Shown piece by piece: positions 10,179-57,272 of a DNA stretch of 64,000 nt. Source of the DNA: a virus (taxonomy: Duplodnaviria; Heunggongvirae; Uroviricota; Caudoviricetes); the IMG/VR virus record IMGVR_UViG_2671181027_000003; one strand, written 5' to 3'. Within the stretch, counting starts at the first letter, position 1. The number at the start of each line of letters is the position of its first letter. The notes beneath the pieces are model-generated. The model saw nothing but the letters and a program-made list of their open reading frames with translations. It did no database searches and had not been told where the DNA came from. Position numbers and translations under genes: made by a program.

Positions 10179-10744
10179 TTTGATAATCATAAACTTTTTT
10201 GTACGTAGTGGGGCAATTTCTGTCAGTCCTACATGCGTATATGGGTTGTGCTATCATATGCAAATTCTAAACAAGCTATTGGAAATGCTACAATCCGAGT
10301 TTTCATACAACGAGAGGGAAGTGCAATGGGGAAGTGAATACTACGCAAAAAAAAAAGAACCCCCGAACGGGAGTTCTTTCTGGTTTTTTTACGACGCCAT
10401 CGTTAAAAAACCTCATATCGCGTTACGAGAACGGATACGTCAATACAAGTTCATCTTACAACTAAGATGAATCTACGTCAATTTGGTCTCGTAGCGCATT
10501 TGATTAATCGAATAGAGGTATCTTTCGATGAGTGAAATGCTAACGACTTTTATTCAGGCTCCTTTGCTGAGCCAGGTCCTAACCGTACTTGCGCTTTACC
10601 TATTGTTTAGGTGCCAACAGAATAAATAGTTTTAATAAAAATGGGGCTTCGGCTCCATTTTGCTTTGCGGTCGTACATATGAATTCAGCAGCATTAGGTT
10701 GACGCTATTTGAGTCTTCTCAGAACATTCTAAGGAACAAAGAAG

Positions 10745-11473
10745 ATGGCAAAGATATTTTTCAGCTTACAACTTTGGGGAGCAAAGACATCAATTGCGGT
10801 CATGAATATGCTTGCCGAACAGGCTGAGGCAAACATTGTTCGCGCTCTCAGTGATGCCGATCTTCCGGGAGCAGTCTCGGAGGGCGAGTATGACGATTAT
10901 CACGAGGACGATGAGGGTAATATTTATCGGTACACGGTTCCGTACTTTACCTGCGGTTCATGTTCTGGACTCGATGCTGATGAAGTCAAAACTGAATACA
11001 AGCACTTGATTTCACAACTTACTCGTCGTTCGGCATTTCTGACGATGTTCGGGTTATTTGAACACCGCATGGTTGAATGCCTTGATGTCATGGATAGATT
11101 GTCGGGCGAGGTGACAGACAAAAGGTTCAAAACTGTCGAAGATTGCCATAAGCGACTTACAGGAACCATAGGAGGCAAAGGCATCAGGGACATTGATCAT
11201 CTAGCTGCCATCAGAAATATCATGGCTCACAACGATGGCGTTGCCGAAAACTATCATAACCTTTTAAAATCAAACGCAAAGAAGTCAGAAACACAGAAGC
11301 GAGATATCCGCGCAATCAATCGTGCAAAGAATGAAAACGCCGGTATAACAGTAAATTTCTTCAACGGCGTTCTCATGGACGATCAGTTTTTGGAGTATGT
11401 TGTGAGTGAGTTTAATCGATATGTTAGTGAGTTGGATGCGGCAGTTCGCCAGTATCAAAGCAGCATCGGTTAA
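10745..11473 (+). CDS. hypothetical protein
   Basis: 242-aa ORF with no recognisable motif and reduced GC. Confidence 0.5.
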   Translation: MAKIFFSLQLWGAKTSIAVMNMLAEQAEANIVRALSDADLPGAVSEGEYDDYHEDDEGNIYRYTVPYFTCGSCSGLDADEVKTEYKHLISQLTRRSAFLTMFGLFEHRMVECLDVMDRLSGEVTDKRFKTVEDCHKRLTGTIGGKGIRDIDHLAAIRNIMAHNDGVAENYHNLLKSNAKKSETQKRDIRAINRAKNENAGITVNFFNGVLMDDQFLEYVVSEFNRYVSELDAAVRQYQSSIG

Positions 11474-33910: not shown

Positions 33911-34243
33911 AAGAAAATAGCCCTGGCTCTGGCGCTGCTCTCCCTCCCTGTCTACGCGGACACGCACGTCTATGAGTGTGAGATGTCAGTGGCCGAAGTG
34001 AAGAACGACGTGATCCGCAATGTCATCAAAGCCAGCTACGGCGCGATGGTTGTGGACAGCGGCGAACAGTTTTATGTTGTGCGCGATGATCGCGTCCTGT
34101 CTTCCCCCTATCTCACCAAACGTAACGGCAAACTGTCTGGCGTGGGTGAAGATAAGTTCGTTTACAACAAATCAGGTGATGTCTACGGCGTTCACGCGAA
34201 GAACGCCAGCTACCTTTTCGATGACTGCAAGGAGGTTGGTTGA
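33908..34243 (+). CDS. secreted or periplasmic protein
   Basis: Signal peptide MKKIALALALLSLPVYA. Confidence 0.5.
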   Translation: MKKIALALALLSLPVYADTHVYECEMSVAEVKNDVIRNVIKASYGAMVVDSGEQFYVVRDDRVLSSPYLTKRNGKLSGVGEDKFVYNKSGDVYGVHAKNASYLFDDCKEVG

Positions 34244-34455
34244 TGGCGGTTACACTGGCAGGTCTGGAAATCGAAAAAACAAGCGGCTACTGGCGTGCCA
34301 AAGGGTTTAAGCAACCCGGCGTGCTGGAGCGACTGGAACGTGAGGACGGTGTCATTGTCCACCAGCGTCGCGAATGGCGCATGTACGATCCGGAAACAGG
34401 TAAGCTCACGACGAAGGCCGGGACACTCTGGGGTCTGCTGAAGAAAATCCACTGA
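34240..34455 (+). CDS. hypothetical protein
   Basis: 71-aa ORF with ATGA coupling. Confidence 0.4.
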   Translation: MMAVTLAGLEIEKTSGYWRAKGFKQPGVLERLEREDGVIVHQRREWRMYDPETGKLTTKAGTLWGLLKKIH

Positions 34456-34462
34456 TAACCCT

Positions 34463-35022
34463 AACCACTGCGGTGAGTAGCCAGCTCACCGCGTGCGTAT
34501 CCGGTCCATAACCACTGTAGTGAGTAAAACGCCTGCCGTGACATCCGGTATCCACTGTAGTGAGTAAAGTGGCGATTATCGACGTCGCTATCCACTGTAG
34601 GGAGTAAACAGGCGTTCATCCGCAGCAAACAACCACTATAGAGAGTGATGGAATGCGTTCTCCAGCGGGTATCCACTATGGAGAGTAAACCTTCACTGTT
34701 TTCAGCGGATATCTACTCACTACAGTGGTTAGTAAATACGGCCAACCGATTCTGCTCTCCACAGTGGATAGCCAATAACGACGGGAACAACGATAACCAC
34801 TATAGAGAGTGGATTTAACAAGATACCCAGTGACCACTAACCTCGCAGCCCTTGTTTCATCTAGGTTTGTAACCACTAACATTTATTTCGTTATTTGAGC
34901 GCTACTGCCTACAGTGGTTACTCTTCGGTTGTTGTTACTCACTACAGTGGATAGCGGATTTCAGATAAACAAAAGGCTCACTACAGTGGATAGTGAGCCT
35001 TTCTACTCTCTACAGTGGTTGG
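34463..35022. repeat. iteron array downstream of repA (incA-like); at least 14 copies of the approximately 19-bp motif in both orientations
   Basis: Repeated (A/T)(A/T)CCACTGTAGTGAGTAA and its reverse complement TACTCACTACAGTGG(A/T)TAG, with small variants such as CCACTATAGAGAGTG. Confidence 0.8.
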
Positions 35023-35023
35023 G

Positions 35024-36088
35024 CTATTTGCGAGCTTTTGCCTTGCGTAGCTCTTCGAGAATCGCCAGTTCTTCCTTGCTCAACATGACCATCTCACCGT
35101 CTTTTTCTTCAGGAACAACATCGATGATGTCCTCCTGATCATCACCAAGCAAGCTATCTTCCTGCTCTTCTGGTTCTTCCGGCGCAGCTTTAGCTGGTGG
35201 CAATGCCGGGCGTAACTTCGGCCGCCTATAGTGGATGATGAAGTAGACCGAGCTGCCGCGCTTCACTTCGGTGTAATCGAGATAGCCGATCTCCCGAAGT
35301 TGCTCCATCGCCTTCCTGACTGTCGCGTTCTGGGTAATGGTGCGGCTGGTTAAGTTAAGTCTGGCGCGTAAGCGAGCCAACGAGATTGGTGCCGGGTCAG
35401 GTGGCAAACTTTCGATGAAGGTGTAGAGCGCCTGCGCGGATTCTTTTCTGGAGAGTTCGTTAATTGCCCGGAGTTGCAGAAGAACCTTTTTGTCGAACTG
35501 GTAGAGTTCGAAAATCTTAGGATCAGCCTGCAGCGAGACCGTGTCGTTCTTTGTGCTGTACTTTGCTGTCTGCACAAGGTGCGTCACGTAATACTCATCA
35601 GAGCCTTTACTGCGGAATGAGATAGTGTTTGTGGCAATACGAGTTAGAGAACTGTCCAGGCGCTTGCGTAACTTCGCGGACGATCTGGCCGTTGGTATGC
35701 CACAGAGCCTGACGAACTCGACGAACGGTAACGTGACGGTGTCGCCAACAACCTTGTGCTTGGCGAACGCGTGGATGATGCCTACCCACGTTTTGAAGTC
35801 GTTATCCATATCCAGACGAACGCCGGAGATCCTTATGTCCTCGTACCCTTCGGCTTTGGCCAGAGACAGCTGTTTGAGTTCAGCAGAGGCGTCCATAGAG
35901 ACCATTTGCCCCTTTCTGCCCCTGGCGGTCGATTTCAGCGTCGGAACGAAGAGACCAAGACGCATCAGAGCAACAGGCTGAACTGTGTTGTTGGTGTTAG
36001 GAACTAACGTAACAACTTCACCGGTCTTTTTGTCTGTTTCTGAGAATGCTTCAACGATCGCTATGTTTTTATTGCCGTTTTCACTCAT
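35024..36088 (-). CDS. repA: plasmid replication initiator RepA (iteron-binding, P1/pMT1-type organisation)
   Basis: 354-aa ORF flanked by iteron arrays on both sides and by a GATC-rich origin-like segment upstream. This matches the P1 oriR-repA-incA layout. Charged C-terminal tail. Confidence 0.7.
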
Positions 36089-36129
36089 TCCAAGTGTCTC
36101 TTTTTATTCGACCGCTTTGGTGGCCTTTG

Positions 36130-36252
36130 CTGATTACAGTGGATAGTAGCACTCATCACAGCGGTTATCCTACCGCCTATAGTGGTTTTTCTACTCTCTA
36201 CAGTGGTTGGTTTGCTCTTCATAGTGGCTGATCTTCTCTCTATAGTGGATAT
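36130..36252. repeat. iteron array upstream of repA (incC/ori-like)
   Basis: TACAGTGGATAG, CTACTCTCTACAGTGGTTGG, CATAGTGGCTG and CTATAGTGGATAT copies. Confidence 0.75.
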
Positions 36253-36289
36253 CGATCACCTCTAAGGCCCTGTGGGACAACGGTTTGCG

Positions 36290-36370
36290 GGGTGCGGGGA
36301 TCTTTTTGGGTCTTTGTGGGTCTCTTTGTTTCTCTTTGGGATCTGAATTACTGGATCGGGCCTGTGTATA
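36290..36370. promoter_or_regulatory. GATC-dense, pyrimidine-tract origin-like segment
   Basis: ggggatctttttgggtctttgtgggtctctttgtttctctttgggatctgaattactggatcggg. Multiple GATC sites as in P1 oriR. Confidence 0.5.
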
Positions 36371-36524
36371 AAAATCAGGTAATTGCAAAACCAGCCATCA
36401 CTCCCCTTCTGGGGATGATGTGTGGTCGAAACAAACACGCCTGAACGCAAAAATTCCAACATCTCTATGAATATCAGCCACCTGACGTAGAAATACAGGC
36501 ACTGGGTTATCCAGTTAAGACAAT

Positions 36525-36740
36525 GTCTCCTACTCACTACAGTGGATACCGACCACTCTCCAGAGAGGTTGTTTTGCTCTTCATAGCGGTTATTATGCTC
36601 TCTACAGAGGTTATTTTCCTCCCCATAGTGGATAGTAACCCCCTCTCAGGCCAGTAACCGCAACGGCTGGAGACGATCGGGGATCTCTTTTGATCTTCTG
36701 TAGGATCTCTCTGGGGATCTAATTATTGGATCGGTCCTGT
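36525..36740. repeat. second, diverged copy of the iteron plus GATC-rich block
   Basis: ctactcactacagtggatacc...catagtggatagtaacc, followed by cgatcggggatctcttttgatcttctgtaggatctctctggggatctaattattggatcgg (6 GATC). Confidence 0.6.
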
Positions 36741-36832
36741 GAATAATGGGTATAAGTAAAACAGGCATTTGCAAACATCGGTGCGCCTTGTCAGTTATCG
36801 TTGCCCAGGACAAAACTATTTGAATAAGAATT

Positions 36833-37477
36833 ATGGATCTCAAACGCACGCGCTGGGTTCGCCGTCTTGAAGATGGCTCCTACACCATTGAATCGAACAC
36901 TAGCCTGAACAAACAGAAGTTGCTCTGCGACCTGTGTGGCATTGCGTCGAAGTGCCCGATTAACGAAACCCGGCTCAAACTCCACGACGCCGGTGCGCAC
37001 TTCCACCTGAATAGTTGCATACGTTACGTGCCACTGATGGCATTTCGTAAACCGATCATCGGATTAGACGCTCCCTACTTCAACACACTCCGCTCTGGTG
37101 TAACATGGCGAGACCGGGTCGAACCTGGCAAGCTCGTTTGTCTGGTTGAGGCTGATACTGGAAATATCATCCGGTTCGGGAGAGTCGATAAGGTCTACTC
37201 AGGCCCGGTGGATGAGATGCTGCGGAAACACAGCCGGTTTAACCATCTCTGCATGGGTGGAGAGAAGATCGAGAAGGTTGGCGAAGTGATCCGCAAATCC
37301 TACGGACACTTCCTGAACGACGACAGCCTTCTCACGGCCATCTACATTCGCCATGTCGATCGGGAGTTCGATACGGAGTATCACAGTGCTGAAGAGTTGA
37401 ATCTTGTCGACCCTCGTCCAAAAGCTGGGGTAATAAACATCAGCGTAGCGCGTCAGAAGCCCCCTGAGACGTTTTAA
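36833..37477 (+). CDS. hypothetical protein
   Basis: 214-aa ORF. Confidence 0.5.
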   Translation: MDLKRTRWVRRLEDGSYTIESNTSLNKQKLLCDLCGIASKCPINETRLKLHDAGAHFHLNSCIRYVPLMAFRKPIIGLDAPYFNTLRSGVTWRDRVEPGKLVCLVEADTGNIIRFGRVDKVYSGPVDEMLRKHSRFNHLCMGGEKIEKVGEVIRKSYGHFLNDDSLLTAIYIRHVDREFDTEYHSAEELNLVDPRPKAGVINISVARQKPPETF

Positions 37478-39542: not shown

Positions 39543-41455
39543 AATTTCTAAAGCTCCAGGTTGAGAACTTCATGGCGTTAGCCAGCGCCGAAGTTGAGTT
39601 AGACCAACGCGGTCTGGTGCTCATTCAGGGTGTTAACAGTGGCGACTCTTCCGCTGCCAGCAATGGCGCGGGCAAATCGACTTTGATGAACAGCCTGATG
39701 TGGTGTCTGTATGGCGAAACTGCGCATGGCGTCAAAGGTGACGACGTGCTCTCTACAGGCCACGAGAAAAACTGTCGCGTGATGGTGACTGTTGAGGATG
39801 AAGGAAAGCGTTACGCCATCATTCGCCACCGCAAACACAAAGAGTTCAAGAACCGGCTGATCGTCCGTGGCGAAGACGGTGATATGACCAAAGGCAAAGA
39901 CACACTGACGCAGGAGTTCGTTGAACGCCTGATTGGTGCATCGAAAGAGGTGTTCATGGCGTCCATCTACGCCAGTCAGGAAGCAATGCCAGATCTGCCG
40001 GGTATGTCCGACAAGAACCTCAAAACCATCGTTGAAGAAGCCGCTGGCGTCGACCGGTTAACGCGAGCCTATGCCATTGCTCGCGAGCGTGCTAATGCAG
40101 CTGCCGCACGCATGGATGTTACCAAATCCAAAATGGACGCCTGTCTCACGCTTATCGAGACCGCGCAGTCAGAGATTGAGGCGGCCAAAGCGTCCTCTGA
40201 TAGTTGGGAACGCGATCGCGGCGAACGTCTGGACAAGGCCCGCGTCGATTTGGCTGGCGCGGAGGTAACGCTGTCCGAAGTCGTGATGGAAATTCGCTCG
40301 CTGCCGGAACAGATCCGGGATACGGAAAACGCGATTGCTGGCGAACGCAGCAAGCTGGCCTCCAAAGAAGAGCATGACGCCAAACTGCTGAAGGTGCGCG
40401 GTGCGATTACGGAGATCCGCTCAAGCATCCGCACTTCAGAAGCGGCACAGAACGAGTCCATGAACCGTGCTCGCTCGTTTAAAAGCAAAGCAGAAGAGGT
40501 CAACACAAAGGTCGGAGCACCTTGTGTTACGTGCGGAAAGCCCTACTGCGAAGAAGATTTGTCCACCGTGAAGGAGAGTTTCATTGAACAAGCGCGTAAT
40601 GAGATCGGCCAGGCGCAGGCATCAGCAGCGGCAGTGGCTCAACACAAAGCTCGTCTTGAGAAAGCGCTCGGCATCGAGTCTGCACTGGTCGCGGCCACAC
40701 CCGACGTCTCAGAAATCATCGCCAGAATCGAACGCCTGACCAATGAGCTAAGTGCGCTGCGTCATCGCGAACGTGAAGTTGTGGCCGTCGAAGCGATGGT
40801 GGCGCGGGCGCGTACTGACGTGAATCGCATCATGGCAGAGGTAAACCCATTTCTGGCTGTCATTAAGCGCCATGAAGACAACCTGGCTGCCAATAAATCT
40901 AATCATGCAGTACTTAAAAAAGAGTTAAAAAGCATTCAGGAACAGGCTCTGTTGCTGGAGAAAGCTCGCCAGGTTTACTCCCCATCTGGCGTGCGTTCAC
41001 ACATCCTGACTTCTGTTACGCCTTTCCTGAACATCAGGACTGCGGAGTATCTCAACACGCTGTCGGACGGCAATATCGTTGCCGAATGGTCGACAATGGA
41101 GACAACGAAGAAAGGCGAGTATCGCGACAAATTCAATATCAGCGTAACCAAAACAGGCTCCAGCAAATCCTTCCAGACGTTGTCTGGTGGCGAGAAGCGT
41201 AAGGTACGCATTGCGTGCTCTCTTGCTTTGCAGGATCTGGTTGCCAGTCGCGCCAGTAAGAATATCGAGCTGTTTATCGGGGATGAAATTGACGACGCGC
41301 TCGACACTGCCGGTCTGGAGCGTCTCATGGGGATTCTGGAAGCCAAAGCGCGTGAACGCGGCACAGTGATGATCATTTCCCACAAAGAGATGAAATCGTG
41401 GTTCCGGGAAACCATCACAGTCGAAGTCAAAGAGGGTCGCAGCTATGTCGTTTAA
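39539..41455 (+). CDS. SbcC/Rad50-family ATPase
   Basis: Walker A NGAGKSTLMNSL, long coiled coil with a CxxC zinc hook (PCVTCGKPYC), signature motif LSGGEKRK, D-loop FIGDEIDDALD. Confidence 0.8.
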   Translation: MKFLKLQVENFMALASAEVELDQRGLVLIQGVNSGDSSAASNGAGKSTLMNSLMWCLYGETAHGVKGDDVLSTGHEKNCRVMVTVEDEGKRYAIIRHRKHKEFKNRLIVRGEDGDMTKGKDTLTQEFVERLIGASKEVFMASIYASQEAMPDLPGMSDKNLKTIVEEAAGVDRLTRAYAIARERANAAAARMDVTKSKMDACLTLIETAQSEIEAAKASSDSWERDRGERLDKARVDLAGAEVTLSEVVMEIRSLPEQIRDTENAIAGERSKLASKEEHDAKLLKVRGAITEIRSSIRTSEAAQNESMNRARSFKSKAEEVNTKVGAPCVTCGKPYCEEDLSTVKESFIEQARNEIGQAQASAAAVAQHKARLEKALGIESALVAATPDVSEIIARIERLTNELSALRHREREVVAVEAMVARARTDVNRIMAEVNPFLAVIKRHEDNLAANKSNHAVLKKELKSIQEQALLLEKARQVYSPSGVRSHILTSVTPFLNIRTAEYLNTLSDGNIVAEWSTMETTKKGEYRDKFNISVTKTGSSKSFQTLSGGEKRKVRIACSLALQDLVASRASKNIELFIGDEIDDALDTAGLERLMGILEAKARERGTVMIISHKEMKSWFRETITVEVKEGRSYVV

Positions 41456-42191
41456 CTTGAGCCGAACGCAGTTTTTGCAGATGTTTGCCGTGATGCAGTC
41501 TATAAAGCTGATAAACCACCATACGGCAAAAGCAGCTGCGCCTGCACTTTTGTGGAAAAACGAAAACATCAATGACGACCAGTTCTCGGTATTAACCAGT
41601 CTGTTGTCATCGACTCCGTTGATGCCGAGTTTGTCTATGCTGCCGTCAGGAAGCACTGCGCCGATCCTTATTAATCCATTTACGGAAGGTGGATATCTCC
41701 CACATTCTGGGCCGGGGTTCGTTGTGATTCCTGAAACCGGAACGCTGAACATCCAAGAAAATGCGCTCTTCAATGCGATGGAGACGCACATCAGCACCGC
41801 ATTCACTAATCTGATTCGACACGCTAACGCACGCGCGGATCACGTTGCAATGCCTGGTGCTGCTTTCGCCAGCTTCTCTGTTGACTATGACCGACACGCG
41901 CCAATTTCAAAGCGGGCGAAACTCTGCTTATACGAGGAGGGATGTGAAGTAGCGGTTATTGAAGTTCTTCTCCCCCATGTATTCAGCGCGAATGAAACGA
42001 CTGCACGCCATCTGATCGACATCATGCGGCATTTCATCGGCCAGAGCATGATTGATGCAGATATTGCTGCAGGCGTTCTAACCAACGATAGCATTCATGT
42101 TGTTAGCGACATTCCGAAGCCGCCAACTCGCGAGCCGGAGAAGACACTTGAACAGAAACTATTGGAATGCCCAACCTGGGCTACGTGGTAA
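41445..42191 (+). CDS. hypothetical protein
   Basis: 248-aa ORF. Confidence 0.5.
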   Translation: MSFNLSRTQFLQMFAVMQSIKLINHHTAKAAAPALLWKNENINDDQFSVLTSLLSSTPLMPSLSMLPSGSTAPILINPFTEGGYLPHSGPGFVVIPETGTLNIQENALFNAMETHISTAFTNLIRHANARADHVAMPGAAFASFSVDYDRHAPISKRAKLCLYEEGCEVAVIEVLLPHVFSANETTARHLIDIMRHFIGQSMIDADIAAGVLTNDSIHVVSDIPKPPTREPEKTLEQKLLECPTWATW

Positions 42192-53612: not shown

Positions 53613-54206
53613 ATGATCGCAGCCGAAAAAATCAAAAAGCGAGAGCGTGATGCCTCTCTTCGCGACCTTTGGCGCACACCGCAGTGGTTGTTTGTCGCCA
53701 TCCAACGTTACATAGGCGTAAAGTTCGATGTGGACGTCGCCTGCAACAAAGATAATGCTCTCCTGCCGAACTTTATCGGTGTTGAGCGTGATGCGCTCAA
53801 GTGCAGTTGGGGAGAACCTGGCACTGTGGCGTTCCTTAACCCGCCCTACTCCAAAATCACCCCCTGGATAGACGCAGCCATTCGCGAACAGGCGCATGGA
53901 GTGACGACGGTCATGCTGATACCACAATCCCTCGATACGCAGTGGTACGAGCGTGCGACTGAATGCGCCAACGAAACCGTCATCTTGTCTGGCGGCCGCG
54001 TGGCGTTCGTTGAGCCGGATGTTGAACTTGGGCTGGTGGAGGTGAACATCAACCCTGGTGGCAGCATGTTGCTTATCTTCCGTGGCTACTGTCAGGAAGC
54101 TGGGCACACCATCAGCAAGATACCGCTGGCGGTGATGAAAAAGCTGGGTGGTTATGATCCTGCCAATGTTGTCAGGAAGAAGAGACCACGTAAAAAGGCA
54201 GCGTAA
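53613..54206 (+). CDS. phage-type DNA N6-adenine methyltransferase (Dam family)
   Basis: WRTPQWLF, FDVDVAC, FLNPPYS (motif IV), TTVMLIP, DTQWY. This is the typical phage Dam-family pattern. Confidence 0.7.
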   Translation: MIAAEKIKKRERDASLRDLWRTPQWLFVAIQRYIGVKFDVDVACNKDNALLPNFIGVERDALKCSWGEPGTVAFLNPPYSKITPWIDAAIREQAHGVTTVMLIPQSLDTQWYERATECANETVILSGGRVAFVEPDVELGLVEVNINPGGSMLLIFRGYCQEAGHTISKIPLAVMKKLGGYDPANVVRKKRPRKKAA

Positions 54207-54640: not shown

Positions 54641-55304
54641 TAGGTAAGTACTTACCATTTAAAACGCAGATCGCCAGTGATAAAATCTACCCGCTTTCCG
54701 GATTGGTTCCGGCAGCTCGACCTGATGGGTGGGGGATAGCGTCACTGGCGTCAGGTTTAAAAAAGCTTACTACCAGCGTAGAACCGGCACCGTTTAGGGG
54801 TTGGGGAAGGGGGAACCAAAGTGGGCAGAGAGAAGGGTCACTTTATGATTGTCGAGTCTGGAGTGTTTCGAGAGGTTGAATCCAGAACTCCCCTTCATAA
54901 AGTGTGGGAAGATCTCGGTTCTGGGGTGCTGTCATCCATAACTTCCCAAGCCTAAGCTGGCAGTAGACTTAGGTCATAACTTTTCAGGTTATGTAACGAC
55001 CAGGTTGGTGAGGAAATTTTGTACTCACCTCCCTGGGAGAGTATTACCTGAAAAGACAACCTCTCACTTCGTTCGAGGTGAACTTCACTCACTTCGTTCG
55101 TTCAGTTCAGGTTTTATTAAACCTGTTCTGGGAAGTAAGTTTCTCTTTTCTAAAAAAATTTTAATATTTACACGCACGCGTGCGCACACGCGCGAGGGGA
55201 AAAATCGCCCATCGTAATGTCTTCAATGTGCCAGGAGCGGACGTTTAATAATTATGCAAGGATATGCTAAAAACAGGCTGTCACAGTTAAACTAACCAAT
55301 AAAT

Positions 55305-55340
55305 GATTTGTATCATCGTTGAGTAACGATGATACAAATC
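55305..55340 (-). terminator. likely terminator of the minus-strand operon
   Basis: 14-bp perfect stem gatttgtatcatcg / cgatgatacaaatc with loop ttgagtaa, about 90 nt downstream of the 55431 stop. A U-rich tract follows on the minus strand. Confidence 0.45.
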
Positions 55341-55430
55341 ACGAAGGGTATTGATATTCCGTATATTCAGGGGTGGAAAACCTGATGTTTTTTCGTTTCC
55401 TGCAGTTTCTATATATGGATTTGACATTAT

Positions 55431-56261
55431 TTAAATGGGTTGAACAGAATTAGCAAGACGCTTTTCTTGTCCAAATGGTGTTGTATAAAAACGTTGTTCA
55501 ATACCGTAAAGAAGCAACTTCAATTCATCATCACTATTTATAGAAAAAGTTCCAGATAGTGGATTAAAAATCACATTCGCCTGACAGTAATTATTAATAT
55601 ATAGAAGCATTCCGGCCTTATCTGCAGGAGTCAATGTCGCTAGCGTATCCATTGCAAGAGCAACTCGCTTCCTATTTGGCTTGGATACTTTGTTTACGTT
55701 ATACTCTTCGGAAAGATTGATGAAGGATTCGGAAAGGAATTGAGTTACCTCTTCTTCCGTAGCCTCTTTAAATAGTATATCAATCCCTTTGAATATACTG
55801 CTTATTGTGGCTAAGTCTTTGAAAATCAACCTATTAGTTTCTTTAAAGAACACTGCGTCAGGAAATTCATTAATTACAAGGCGATTTTCATCATTTTCAA
55901 CAACTGCTGCATCACCAAATGAAATGGTTTTTTTTCTTATCATTTGCGAAGGGGTAACCTTTTGAAAATAAAAATCACCATCCTGTTCAGCCATGATGTA
56001 AGAAATATTGGAGAACTGAGATTTTGTCAAACTCAGAAACTCCTTAGAGTCAAAGTCAATTTTCAGTATCGGCAAACAATAGTCTTGCTCGCTAAAACTG
56101 TCAATCTTGAACCATACCTCTTCATCCAAATTATGGTCAGGATTATAAACTACACAATTTCCATTAGTAACAACGACTGGTGAATAAAGAGTACAATCTG
56201 ATAGTAATTTGAAATAAGGGTTTTTTCGTAATCTTTTTATTTTCGCAAACACATTGTTCAT
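55431..56261 (-). CDS. hypothetical cytoplasmic protein, second gene of an AT-rich two-gene cassette
   Basis: 276-aa ORF, AT-rich. Its start is 3 bp from the stop of the upstream membrane-protein gene. Confidence 0.55.
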   Translation of the reverse strand: MNNVFAKIKRLRKNPYFKLLSDCTLYSPVVVTNGNCVVYNPDHNLDEEVWFKIDSFSEQDYCLPILKIDFDSKEFLSLTKSQFSNISYIMAEQDGDFYFQKVTPSQMIRKKTISFGDAAVVENDENRLVINEFPDAVFFKETNRLIFKDLATISSIFKGIDILFKEATEEEVTQFLSESFINLSEEYNVNKVSKPNRKRVALAMDTLATLTPADKAGMLLYINNYCQANVIFNPLSGTFSINSDDELKLLLYGIEQRFYTTPFGQEKRLANSVQPI

Positions 56262-56263
56262 TA

Positions 56264-56854
56264 CTATTTCCTTTCGATAAATGTGTAGTCATTGATTCTG
56301 AATGCCTTGGAGATGACAATCTCTTTAGGTGTTTTATATTTGCATTTGCTTATAAGAAAGATAGAGGCGCCACCTTTAGTTTGTATACTATAAAACTCGT
56401 AACGGAAGACTAGAAACAATGGGTTGAAGTATAGAGCTTGTGACAAAAAGGTAAAAATAAACAAAACGCCATAAACAAAAAACAAAGCACTCCAACTTGA
56501 AATGCTTAGTGCTACAAAAAAATACCCCAAATAACTGGGTAAGAAACTATTATTTGCATGTTCAATGTTTACTGCGTCGCCTTCTTTAAAATCATCCGCG
56601 CTTAGACCACGACTGAGTAAGATACTTAAACCGGTGAGCAGTACAGGAATCAGCAGATACAGGAAATATGAATTGAATGGATGCCAATCACTTAAAAAGC
56701 TAAACTGTGGGTAGAATTGCAGGAAATATCCCAGAGTGTACTTTTTCTGAACGAGAAAAACTATAACTAACAAAGATGTAGCATTGAATGTTAGCAGCAG
56801 TCTGAAGAGTATGTTAATTATGGCGCACCCCCTGTGAGTGAGAACAAGGTACAT
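56264..56854 (-). CDS. integral membrane protein (about 4 TM), first gene of the cassette
   Basis: 196 aa with four long hydrophobic segments. AT-rich. Confidence 0.55.
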   Translation of the reverse strand: MYLVLTHRGCAIINILFRLLLTFNATSLLVIVFLVQKKYTLGYFLQFYPQFSFLSDWHPFNSYFLYLLIPVLLTGLSILLSRGLSADDFKEGDAVNIEHANNSFLPSYLGYFFVALSISSWSALFFVYGVLFIFTFLSQALYFNPLFLVFRYEFYSIQTKGGASIFLISKCKYKTPKEIVISKAFRINDYTFIERK

Positions 56855-57272
56855 TAACTACCTTATGTACCGAGCTTCTCATTTTATTTTTGTGAAGTAG
56901 GTACTAACGGCTAAAAAGAGCGAAGTAAAAAGTTACTAGTAGTCAGACCAGCATAATGCAAAAAATCACTGTATATCAATTATTATTTTTCGGATAGATA
57001 AAGCTTATCCAAACTCCAGTAACTCAATGGGTTTAAAATTCTGGTCTATCGGGTAGCCTGAAAGGTAGCCACTTTAGATCATTTTCACGAGTTTTAACGC
57101 ATCTTTCTCAACTCTGAATGGCCGCTTTGAGTGTCTGAGCGTTGATTAACAAAGGTTATGTTAGTAACACATCTGCAGTGATAACAATTACGAACTTCCG
57201 CTTCACGCTCAGAGCGGACCTTCTGCCCAATGAGCTAGTCCGCTACGCGCCATAAGCGGACAGGCTGTAGTA

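Follow-up and report, generated by a model that had tools for sequence, protein, structure and literature searches.

Analysis of a 64,000-nucleotide stretch of virus record IMGVR_UViG_2671181027_000003 (hereafter the window) indicated that the region at 34462-36755 is the replicon of a plasmid-prophage, namely of a phage-plasmid of the SSU5/pHCM2/pMT1 type, and that, among the Rep_3 iteron replicons, it is one of the P1/RepFIB branch. We place the probability of this assignment at about 0.9. The 2.45-kb stretch that contains the region (34400-36850) was 99.9% identical to the Citrobacter freundii plasmid pCAV1741-110, a closed circular molecule of 109.7 kb to which MOB-suite assigns an IncFIB replicon and the class non-mobilizable, and 97.2% identical to the virion-forming Salmonella phage SSU5. 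In PLSDB the same stretch matched 341 plasmid records, including 111 from Escherichia, 90 from Enterobacter, 63 from Yersinia and 44 from Salmonella, together with records from other genera. The entire window was collinear with pCAV1741-110 at ~99.9%, the sole exception being a variable, accessory spot at 55246-57192, which measures ~1.9 kb here and ~0.7 kb in the plasmid.

The gene content was that of a phage. The window encodes a DnaB-like helicase, a primase, a ligase, a Pol III alpha subunit, a recombinase, SbcCD, NrdAB, a thymidylate synthase and a Dam-family methylase, and the remainder of pCAV1741-110 carries terminase, capsid, tape-measure and tail genes. By genome similarity and synteny with SSU5-type elements that bear virion genes, the element falls within the SSU5 supercommunity, and the genes bordering the replicon are the same in SSU5 as in the window. 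The supercommunity is a group of phage-plasmids that takes in pHCM2 and pMT1 (PMC7969092); one of its members, Cyrano, was found at 5.5 plasmid copies per cell and produced virions on induction with ciprofloxacin (PMC9928086). The original prediction, made from the letters of the window, had proposed a phage that is kept as a plasmid. The near-identity both to a virion-forming phage and to a closed circular plasmid, together with the Cyrano data, bears this out.

The replicon as first described is already known, because repA is annotated in hundreds of records, is typed as IncFIB and belongs to a published group. Typing tools count the SSU5 replication gene as IncFIB (bioRxiv 10.1101/2025.09.12.675607). 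Since the replicon is textbook-like and is itself used for IncFIB typing, confirming it mainly validates the first reading. SSU5-type phage-plasmids, among them Yersinia pestis pMT1, Salmonella Typhi pHCM2 and carriers of resistance genes, rely on this replicon for their inheritance. The tandem arrangement of its origin provides one modestly novel, testable angle.

The initiator gene, repA, lies at 35024-36088 on the minus strand and encodes 354 amino acids, exactly as predicted. Its product is homologous to P1 RepA and is an initiator of the Rep_3 type, probably with WH1-WH2 architecture; the family is settled by 49% identity to the P1 protein across 267 amino acids (BLASTP, E 4e-92). A hidden Markov model search for Rep_3 domains, which had been proposed as a check, placed Pfam Rep3_N above its cut-off (43.1 bits against 22.4, E 7e-11) and Rep3_C at its threshold, and phrog_775 was matched with an E value of 1e-147. 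Among phage records, tblastn identified homologues in P1 and P7 (E 1e-68 for these two), SJ46, RCS47 and Klebsiella SSU5-like phages. An NCBIfam scan of RepA and a sequence search of the PDB gave no match. Identity to RepA was 99% in both SSU5 and pMT1, 94% in pBL12EC-1, 91% in Cyrano and 70% in the Pantoea plasmid pPant3.

According to a review (PMC4980987), the Rep proteins of plasmids are built from two winged-helix domains, and RepE has served as the template for a model of P1 RepA. Compared with P1 RepA, the window's protein has ~27 additional residues at the N-terminus and ~65 at the C-terminus. The C-terminal extension (residues ~290-354, encoded at 35024-35221), which is absent from P1 RepA, comprises an acidic linker and a conserved helix. 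It is kept as far as pPant3 and could be a partner-binding tail. Both this RepA and P1 RepA are named 'replication helicase' by RefSeq (in the SSU5 and P1 records) and by PHROG (phrog_775). The label is a propagated misannotation, because RepA is an initiator, probably of the winged-helix kind, without a helicase domain.

Iterons were concentrated around repA. When up to 3 mismatches were allowed, the 18-bp pattern TACTCWCTAYAGTGGWTA produced 19 matches in 64 kb against 0.13 expected (0/100 shuffles), every one of them inside 34462-36634. A weight matrix built from these 19 identified 24 copies scoring at least 14 bits within the same limits, and one elsewhere in the window. The 24 iterons were split into 13 downstream of repA, six directly upstream, and five in a second upstream set.

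The 13 downstream iterons (18-bp core TACTCACTACAGTGGWTA), identified by the pattern and weight-matrix scans against shuffles, form an incA-like control array at 34462-35021. The array begins 3 nucleotides past the repA stop and holds copies in both orientations, proximal copies lying in the orientation of the origin iterons and distal copies inverted. Six copies have the origin orientation (35004, 34975, 34936, 34903, 34753 and 34714) and seven are inverted (34794, 34670, 34630, 34589, 34549, 34509 and 34462), with ~40-bp spacing. The array was where it had been predicted, though the estimate of at least 14 copies was one too high for the window; SSU5 does have 14. Two AACCACTAAC half-site-like sequences are found within the array as well. 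Among relatives the length of the array varies by ~40-bp units, with one more copy in SSU5 and several fewer in Cyrano, a pattern consistent with unequal recombination among iterons. Array length may tune copy number.

Upstream of repA, two modules are arranged in tandem and recur with a period of 375-386 bp. In each, the iteron set is bordered by a GC-rich spacer, a block of AGATCC-type heptamers and an exact DnaA box. The inner, repA-proximal set contains six iterons at 36128-36251 (plus strand, 21-22 bp phasing), of which three are near consensus and three diverged; it agrees with the four to six copies expected, occupies the position of P1 incC, and is presumed to be the RepA operator and origin-binding array. 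The inner heptamer block (36296-36360, minus strand) is the GATC- and pyrimidine-rich segment that had been noticed, and includes three GATC sites (36299, 36340 and 36354) and three degenerate heptamers; on the repA-sense strand the series reads GATCC, AGATCC, AGAAAC, AGACCC, AGACCC, AGATCC. Beside it is the inner DnaA box, TTATACACA (36363-36371, minus strand), an exact match located 283 bp from the repA ATG, compared with 277 bp in P1.

The outer module had been described as a second, diverged copy at 36525-36740. It is indeed present there, but extends slightly further, to about 36755. Its five iterons (36531-36634, plus strand, 21-23 bp) comprise one perfect match and four diverged copies, and the diverged forms are themselves conserved among relatives. 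The outer heptamer block (36672-36735, minus strand) has six GATC (Dam) sites, all in AGATCC-type heptamers, and is the part most like P1 oriR and the IncFIB origins. These six sites fall within 58 bp (36675-36732), the densest GATC cluster in the window, and six sites within 62 bp were reached in 2 of 2000 random placements; the average across the window is one GATC per 230 bp. Tandem DnaA boxes on the minus strand, an exact TTATTCACA at 36738-36746 and a degenerate TTATACCCA at 36747-36755, complete the module, and the boxes of P1 are likewise tandem at this position. On the repA-proximal side, a partial DnaA box, TTATCCAGT (36507-36515, plus strand), adjoins the outer iterons, and its TGGATAA is invariant. 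Exact matches to TTATNCACA occurred three times in the 64 kb, and two of the three were the inner and outer origin boxes, both on the repA strand.

The outer module aligned with the single origins of plasmids pKA2-4 and pFS2, including the outer flank and the start of a 645-bp open reading frame (ORF), and the sequence past the inner DnaA box resembled a decayed copy of that flank. The unit that was duplicated, on these alignments, took in the iterons, the heptamers and the DnaA box together with ~100 bp of flank. The inter-origin spacer (36372-36530) is poorly conserved except for the partial DnaA box. Its sequence aligned with 36776-36860 and probably derives, by duplication and decay, from the leader and 5′ end of the adjacent gene. 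Divergence between the modules has been complementary: the outer module keeps 6/6 GATC heptamers and the tandem DnaA boxes with 1/5 perfect iterons, while the inner module has the better iterons and 3/6 heptamers.

The P1-type layout of origin, repA and inc locus that had been proposed corresponded feature for feature with the experimentally annotated P1 record. The RefSeq annotation of P1 gives, in order, tandem DnaA boxes, five Dam sites in AGATCC heptamers, a GC-rich spacer, incC, repA, incA and parA-parB-parS. P1 incC has five iterons at 21-bp spacing with PrepA inside; incA has nine, the first of which abuts the repA stop, with the repA-proximal copies 9, 8 and 7 in the incC orientation and the six distal copies inverted. 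The minus strand of the window presents the same order of DnaA box, heptamers, GC spacer, phased iterons, repA and two-orientation array. Both modules aligned base by base with P1 oriR, and the P1 core TTATCCACTGGATAGATCCAATAATCAGGTCC...AGATCC...AGATCCCTGATCG has its counterpart in TTATTCACAGGACCGATCCAATAATTAGATCCCC...AGATCCCCGATCG of the outer module, at 74% identity over the block. The iteron, in contrast, is unrelated (TATCCACTGTAGTGAGTA in the window, GATGTGTGCTGGAGGGAAA in P1), which implies a different specificity and a different incompatibility group from P1. The window also differs from P1 in having 13 downstream copies instead of nine, a tandem-duplicated origin, and no parAB-parS after the array. 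Among Rep_3 iteron replicons, GATC heptamers characterise the P1/RepFIB branch. The replicons of mini-F (ori2 - repE - incC), pSC101, R6K and pPS10 belong to the same Rep3_N/Rep3_C superfamily, with sequence likeness at the domain level only. Mini-F and other Rep_3 replicons follow the same logic, with iterons at the origin, autoregulation (presumed for the present replicon) and a control locus of further iterons elsewhere (PMC4980987).

Closer relatives share more than this logic. SSU5, the pHCM2 group and Y. pestis pMT1 (IncFIB) carry the same replicon, with the double origin and the flanking genes in common. The origin region is 95-98% identical to the window in SSU5 and pMT1; for pMT1 nucleotide identity upstream of repA is 95%, and with its 99% RepA identity the description of the replicon as pMT1-type holds to the letter. 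Differences within the SSU5/pMT1 group are confined to the copy number of the downstream array and to point substitutions, mostly in the inter-origin spacer. Plasmids of the pKpn/pKPHS1 type (Klebsiella pneumoniae pKA2-4, Cronobacter pFS2) use the same slot, between a Cra-like ORF and the 645-bp ORF, and encode a homologous initiator (51% identity over amino acids 40-288). They share the heptamer and DnaA-box block and the GTGACCACTGG palindrome in the downstream array, but have another iteron (TACCGCTGACAGCATA) and a single-module origin. For pKPHS1-type plasmids, four iterons downstream of repA have been reported in a paper that treats iterons only cursorily (PMC6735626).

Conservation of the double origin was expressed as the percentage of invariant columns among five sequences (window, SSU5, pMT1, pBL12EC-1 and Cyrano). 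Values were 84% for the outer iterons, 75% for the outer heptamers, 85% for the inner heptamers and 82% for the inner iterons, against 50% for the central 141 bp of the inter-origin spacer (36390-36530). Overall, the heptamer, DnaA-box and iteron blocks of both modules were 75-85% invariant, and the GC spacers 56-75%. In the SSU5/pMT1/Cyrano lineage, the six GATC sites and the diverged iterons of the outer module were essentially fixed, as were the degenerate heptamers of the inner one, and therefore neither module drifts freely within it. Judged by these columns, both modules are under purifying selection.

At 77-81% identity, the outer heptamer block alone was found in >3000 plasmid records, among them Klebsiella IncFIB(K) and Escherichia coli IncFIB plasmids, while the complete double structure was present in only 335. 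When IMG/VR was scanned with a RepA alignment, 80 loci were recovered. The pattern of the window recurred in every locus whose RepA identity was 90% or more. Two iteron sets upstream of rep were also found in five loci with 69-87% RepA identity (L039, L043, L044, L047 and L048) and in Pantoea vagans pPant3, with the same iteron type and the same tandem double module. The outer heptamer block of these relatives always has 4-6 GATC. In the inner block the number is four in L039, L043 and pPant3, three in L048 as in the window, two in L044 and zero in L047, where four iterons directly follow a P1-like AAAACTATCCACACA box. P1-like loci (~49% RepA identity) have a single cluster, at the P1 distance. 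Typing classes pPant3 as an ordinary mobilizable plasmid, and the stretch examined showed no phage genes. The 1990s P1/pMT1 papers and a 2026 heteroresistance preprint aside, no description of the tandem origin was found in the literature.

In P1, RepA monomers and DnaA open the heptamers, Dam methylation is required, RepA represses its own gene, and the downstream array limits copy number. Relevant papers on P1, listed among the references of PMC5043065 and PMC4980987, include Abeles (1984, 1990), Brendler (1991, 1997), and Park and Chattoraj (2001). By analogy, RepA monomers in the present replicon would bind the phased iterons upstream of repA, host DnaA would bind the flanking DnaA box or boxes, and the two proteins would jointly open the adjacent AGATCC heptamer block. 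The GATC sites of the heptamers would need Dam methylation, which would place the origin under hemimethylation control. RepA bound to the repA-proximal iterons would repress repA, as in P1, through occlusion of the promoter. The 13-iteron downstream array would titrate RepA and pair with the origin ('handcuffing'), keeping copy number low. An Rfam scan of 34000-37200 returned nothing relevant and no sign of antisense-RNA control. The Dam-family N6-adenine methyltransferase gene of the element (53613-54206, plus strand; Pfam PF05869, E 1.3e-37) may, speculatively, keep the origin GATC sites methylated.

From their sequence features, the outer module (36507-36755) is in our judgement the principal origin, because DnaA boxes flank it on either side and it combines six intact GATC heptamers with five iterons. 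The inner module (36128-36371) is judged to serve mainly as the repA operator and as an additional array for RepA binding, its origin features being partly decayed. Retention of the outer GATC sites and graded loss of the inner ones in relatives argue for the outer module as the obligatory origin, and for the inner module as an operator and control array. It is also the outer block that is shared with the >3000 IncFIB-type plasmid origins. We tentatively suggest, at somewhat worse than even odds, that a tandem origin with divided labour is common to the whole clade with RepA identity of at least 69% (SSU5, pMT1, Cyrano and the Pantoea plasmids), or else that both modules fire there under different methylation. 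With labour divided, the outer module would keep DnaA- and Dam-heptamer-dependent opening and fire, and the inner module would act as a high-affinity operator and handcuffing partner, losing its GATC sites. If true, this would be a natural subfunctionalisation of a replication origin, and would bear on how iteron plasmids separate initiation from autoregulation.

Several results weigh against the assignment or against the division of labour. The Rep3_C score of RepA, 21.0 bits, is 0.1 bit short of its cut-off of 21.1, and a single-sequence AlphaFold2 model of the protein was too poor to read a fold (predicted local distance difference test score 41.8, predicted template modelling score 0.35). 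No consensus sigma-70 promoter for repA was identified on the repA strand between 36300 and 36080, either with a promoter tool or in a relaxed scan; the P1 repA promoter is also weak relative to consensus (TTGCTA/TATAGG). The inner module lies at the P1-equivalent distance from repA, and its degenerate heptamers are strongly conserved in the SSU5/pMT1/Cyrano lineage (85% invariant columns). Spacing and heptamer conservation together argue that the inner module is more than a vestige. A comparison of the window with pPant3 by pairwise identities gave no decision on inner/outer orthology or on a single duplication event. Finally, the literature searched contained no experiment on this replicon, and all mechanistic steps are for this reason carried over from P1. 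The sequences themselves show the homology of initiator and origin core to P1, the arrangement of RepA-type sites, DnaA boxes and Dam-site clusters, and the conservation patterns; RepA binding, methylation dependence, handcuffing and the identity of the module that would fire are inferred.

Some observations lend something to the idea that both modules work as origins, whether redundantly or under specific conditions, as with a Dam-rich outer module under tight hemimethylation control and a Dam-poor inner module that escapes it. DnaA box, heptamers, GC spacer and phased iterons are present in both modules; each module aligns to P1 oriR and is much better conserved than the spacer; and the degenerate heptamers of the inner module show hardly any change as far as Cyrano. 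The inner block of distant relatives is, however, down to two or zero GATC while its iterons stay, which suggests that the origin function of the inner module is dispensable there, and we consider two working origins possible but doubtful.

Less probable still, and in our view unlikely, is an arrangement in which the inner module is the true oriR and the outer module an added negative-control (inc) locus or a relic of a duplication, contributing nothing beyond further RepA-binding sites. The distance of the inner DnaA box from the repA ATG, so close to that in P1, and the nearer-consensus inner iterons would fit such an arrangement. The outer GATC heptamers and DnaA boxes, however, are intact, conserved and the closest to P1/IncFIB origins. 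A pure titration locus would need neither heptamers nor DnaA boxes, and the outer block is retained by all relatives.

That the region serves lytic-phase replication of phage DNA and not plasmid maintenance is very improbable: the surrounding phage genes for a DnaB-like helicase, primase, Pol III alpha, ligase, recombinase, SbcCD and NrdAB would suit that role, but the region is a strict homologue of the P1 plasmid replicon and not of P1 oriL/repL, homologous replicons also occur on non-phage plasmids (Pantoea pPant3, Klebsiella IncFIB(K)), and a control array with so many iterons is characteristic of low-copy control. Chance repeats were rejected as the explanation of the iterons, as were an array resembling clustered regularly interspaced short palindromic repeats (CRISPR) and an array of transcription-factor operators. 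A co-integrated foreign plasmid was also rejected; the same slot carries a rep allele in all SSU5-type relatives examined.

A search for parAB elsewhere in the genome had also been proposed. None was present in the window, where tblastn with P1 ParA, P1 ParB and the ParA-like protein of pCAV1741-110 found nothing, and no parA-parB-parS directly follows the incA-like array. A ParA/MipZ-type ATPase does occur in pCAV1741-110 outside the window. At 40602-41626 of that plasmid (locus L006), ~1.2-2.2 kb before window position 1, a 221-amino-acid ATPase of the ParA/MipZ/VirC1 type is followed by a 117-amino-acid ORF without a Pfam match. The two are likely a type-Ib partition pair, located far from the replicon, unlike the P1 rep-par cassette. 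A ParB_N-domain protein encoded beside the terminase of pCAV1741-110 (10206-10874) is probably not a partition protein.

The replicon is flanked by two plus-strand genes that lack a Pfam match here. In the records of relatives, the gene at 34240-34455 bears the name 'P1 Cra / Cre-associated protein', and the 645-bp ORF at 36833-37477 that of 'ASCH RNA-binding domain protein'. These two genes border the rep slot in every SSU5-type element examined, regardless of the rep allele.

Further elements were noted within the downstream array. A terminator-like hairpin (34971-35003, minus strand) is located directly after the repA stop, with a 14-pair stem followed by a T-rich tail. An iteron lies in its stem and loop, so that RepA binding could interact with transcript termination or with read-through into the control array. 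In the middle of the array, the 17-bp quasi-palindrome CCCAGTGACCACTAACC (34826-34842) has its sole occurrence in the window, and it is invariant across SSU5, pMT1, pBL12EC-1 and Cyrano except for one base in pBL12EC-1. It is also found in pKA2-4 and pFS2 (L009, ~1365-1385; L010, ~1500-1520). Because these pKpn-type and Cronobacter replicons have another iteron, the quasi-palindrome is not an iteron derivative. A related sequence, AATGTTAGTGGTTAC, occurs at about 34866-34880. On the repA-sense strand, the iterons at 36128-36634 start with TATCCAC or TAACCAC and so resemble the core of the DnaA box (TTATCCACA), a likeness that may be coincidence.

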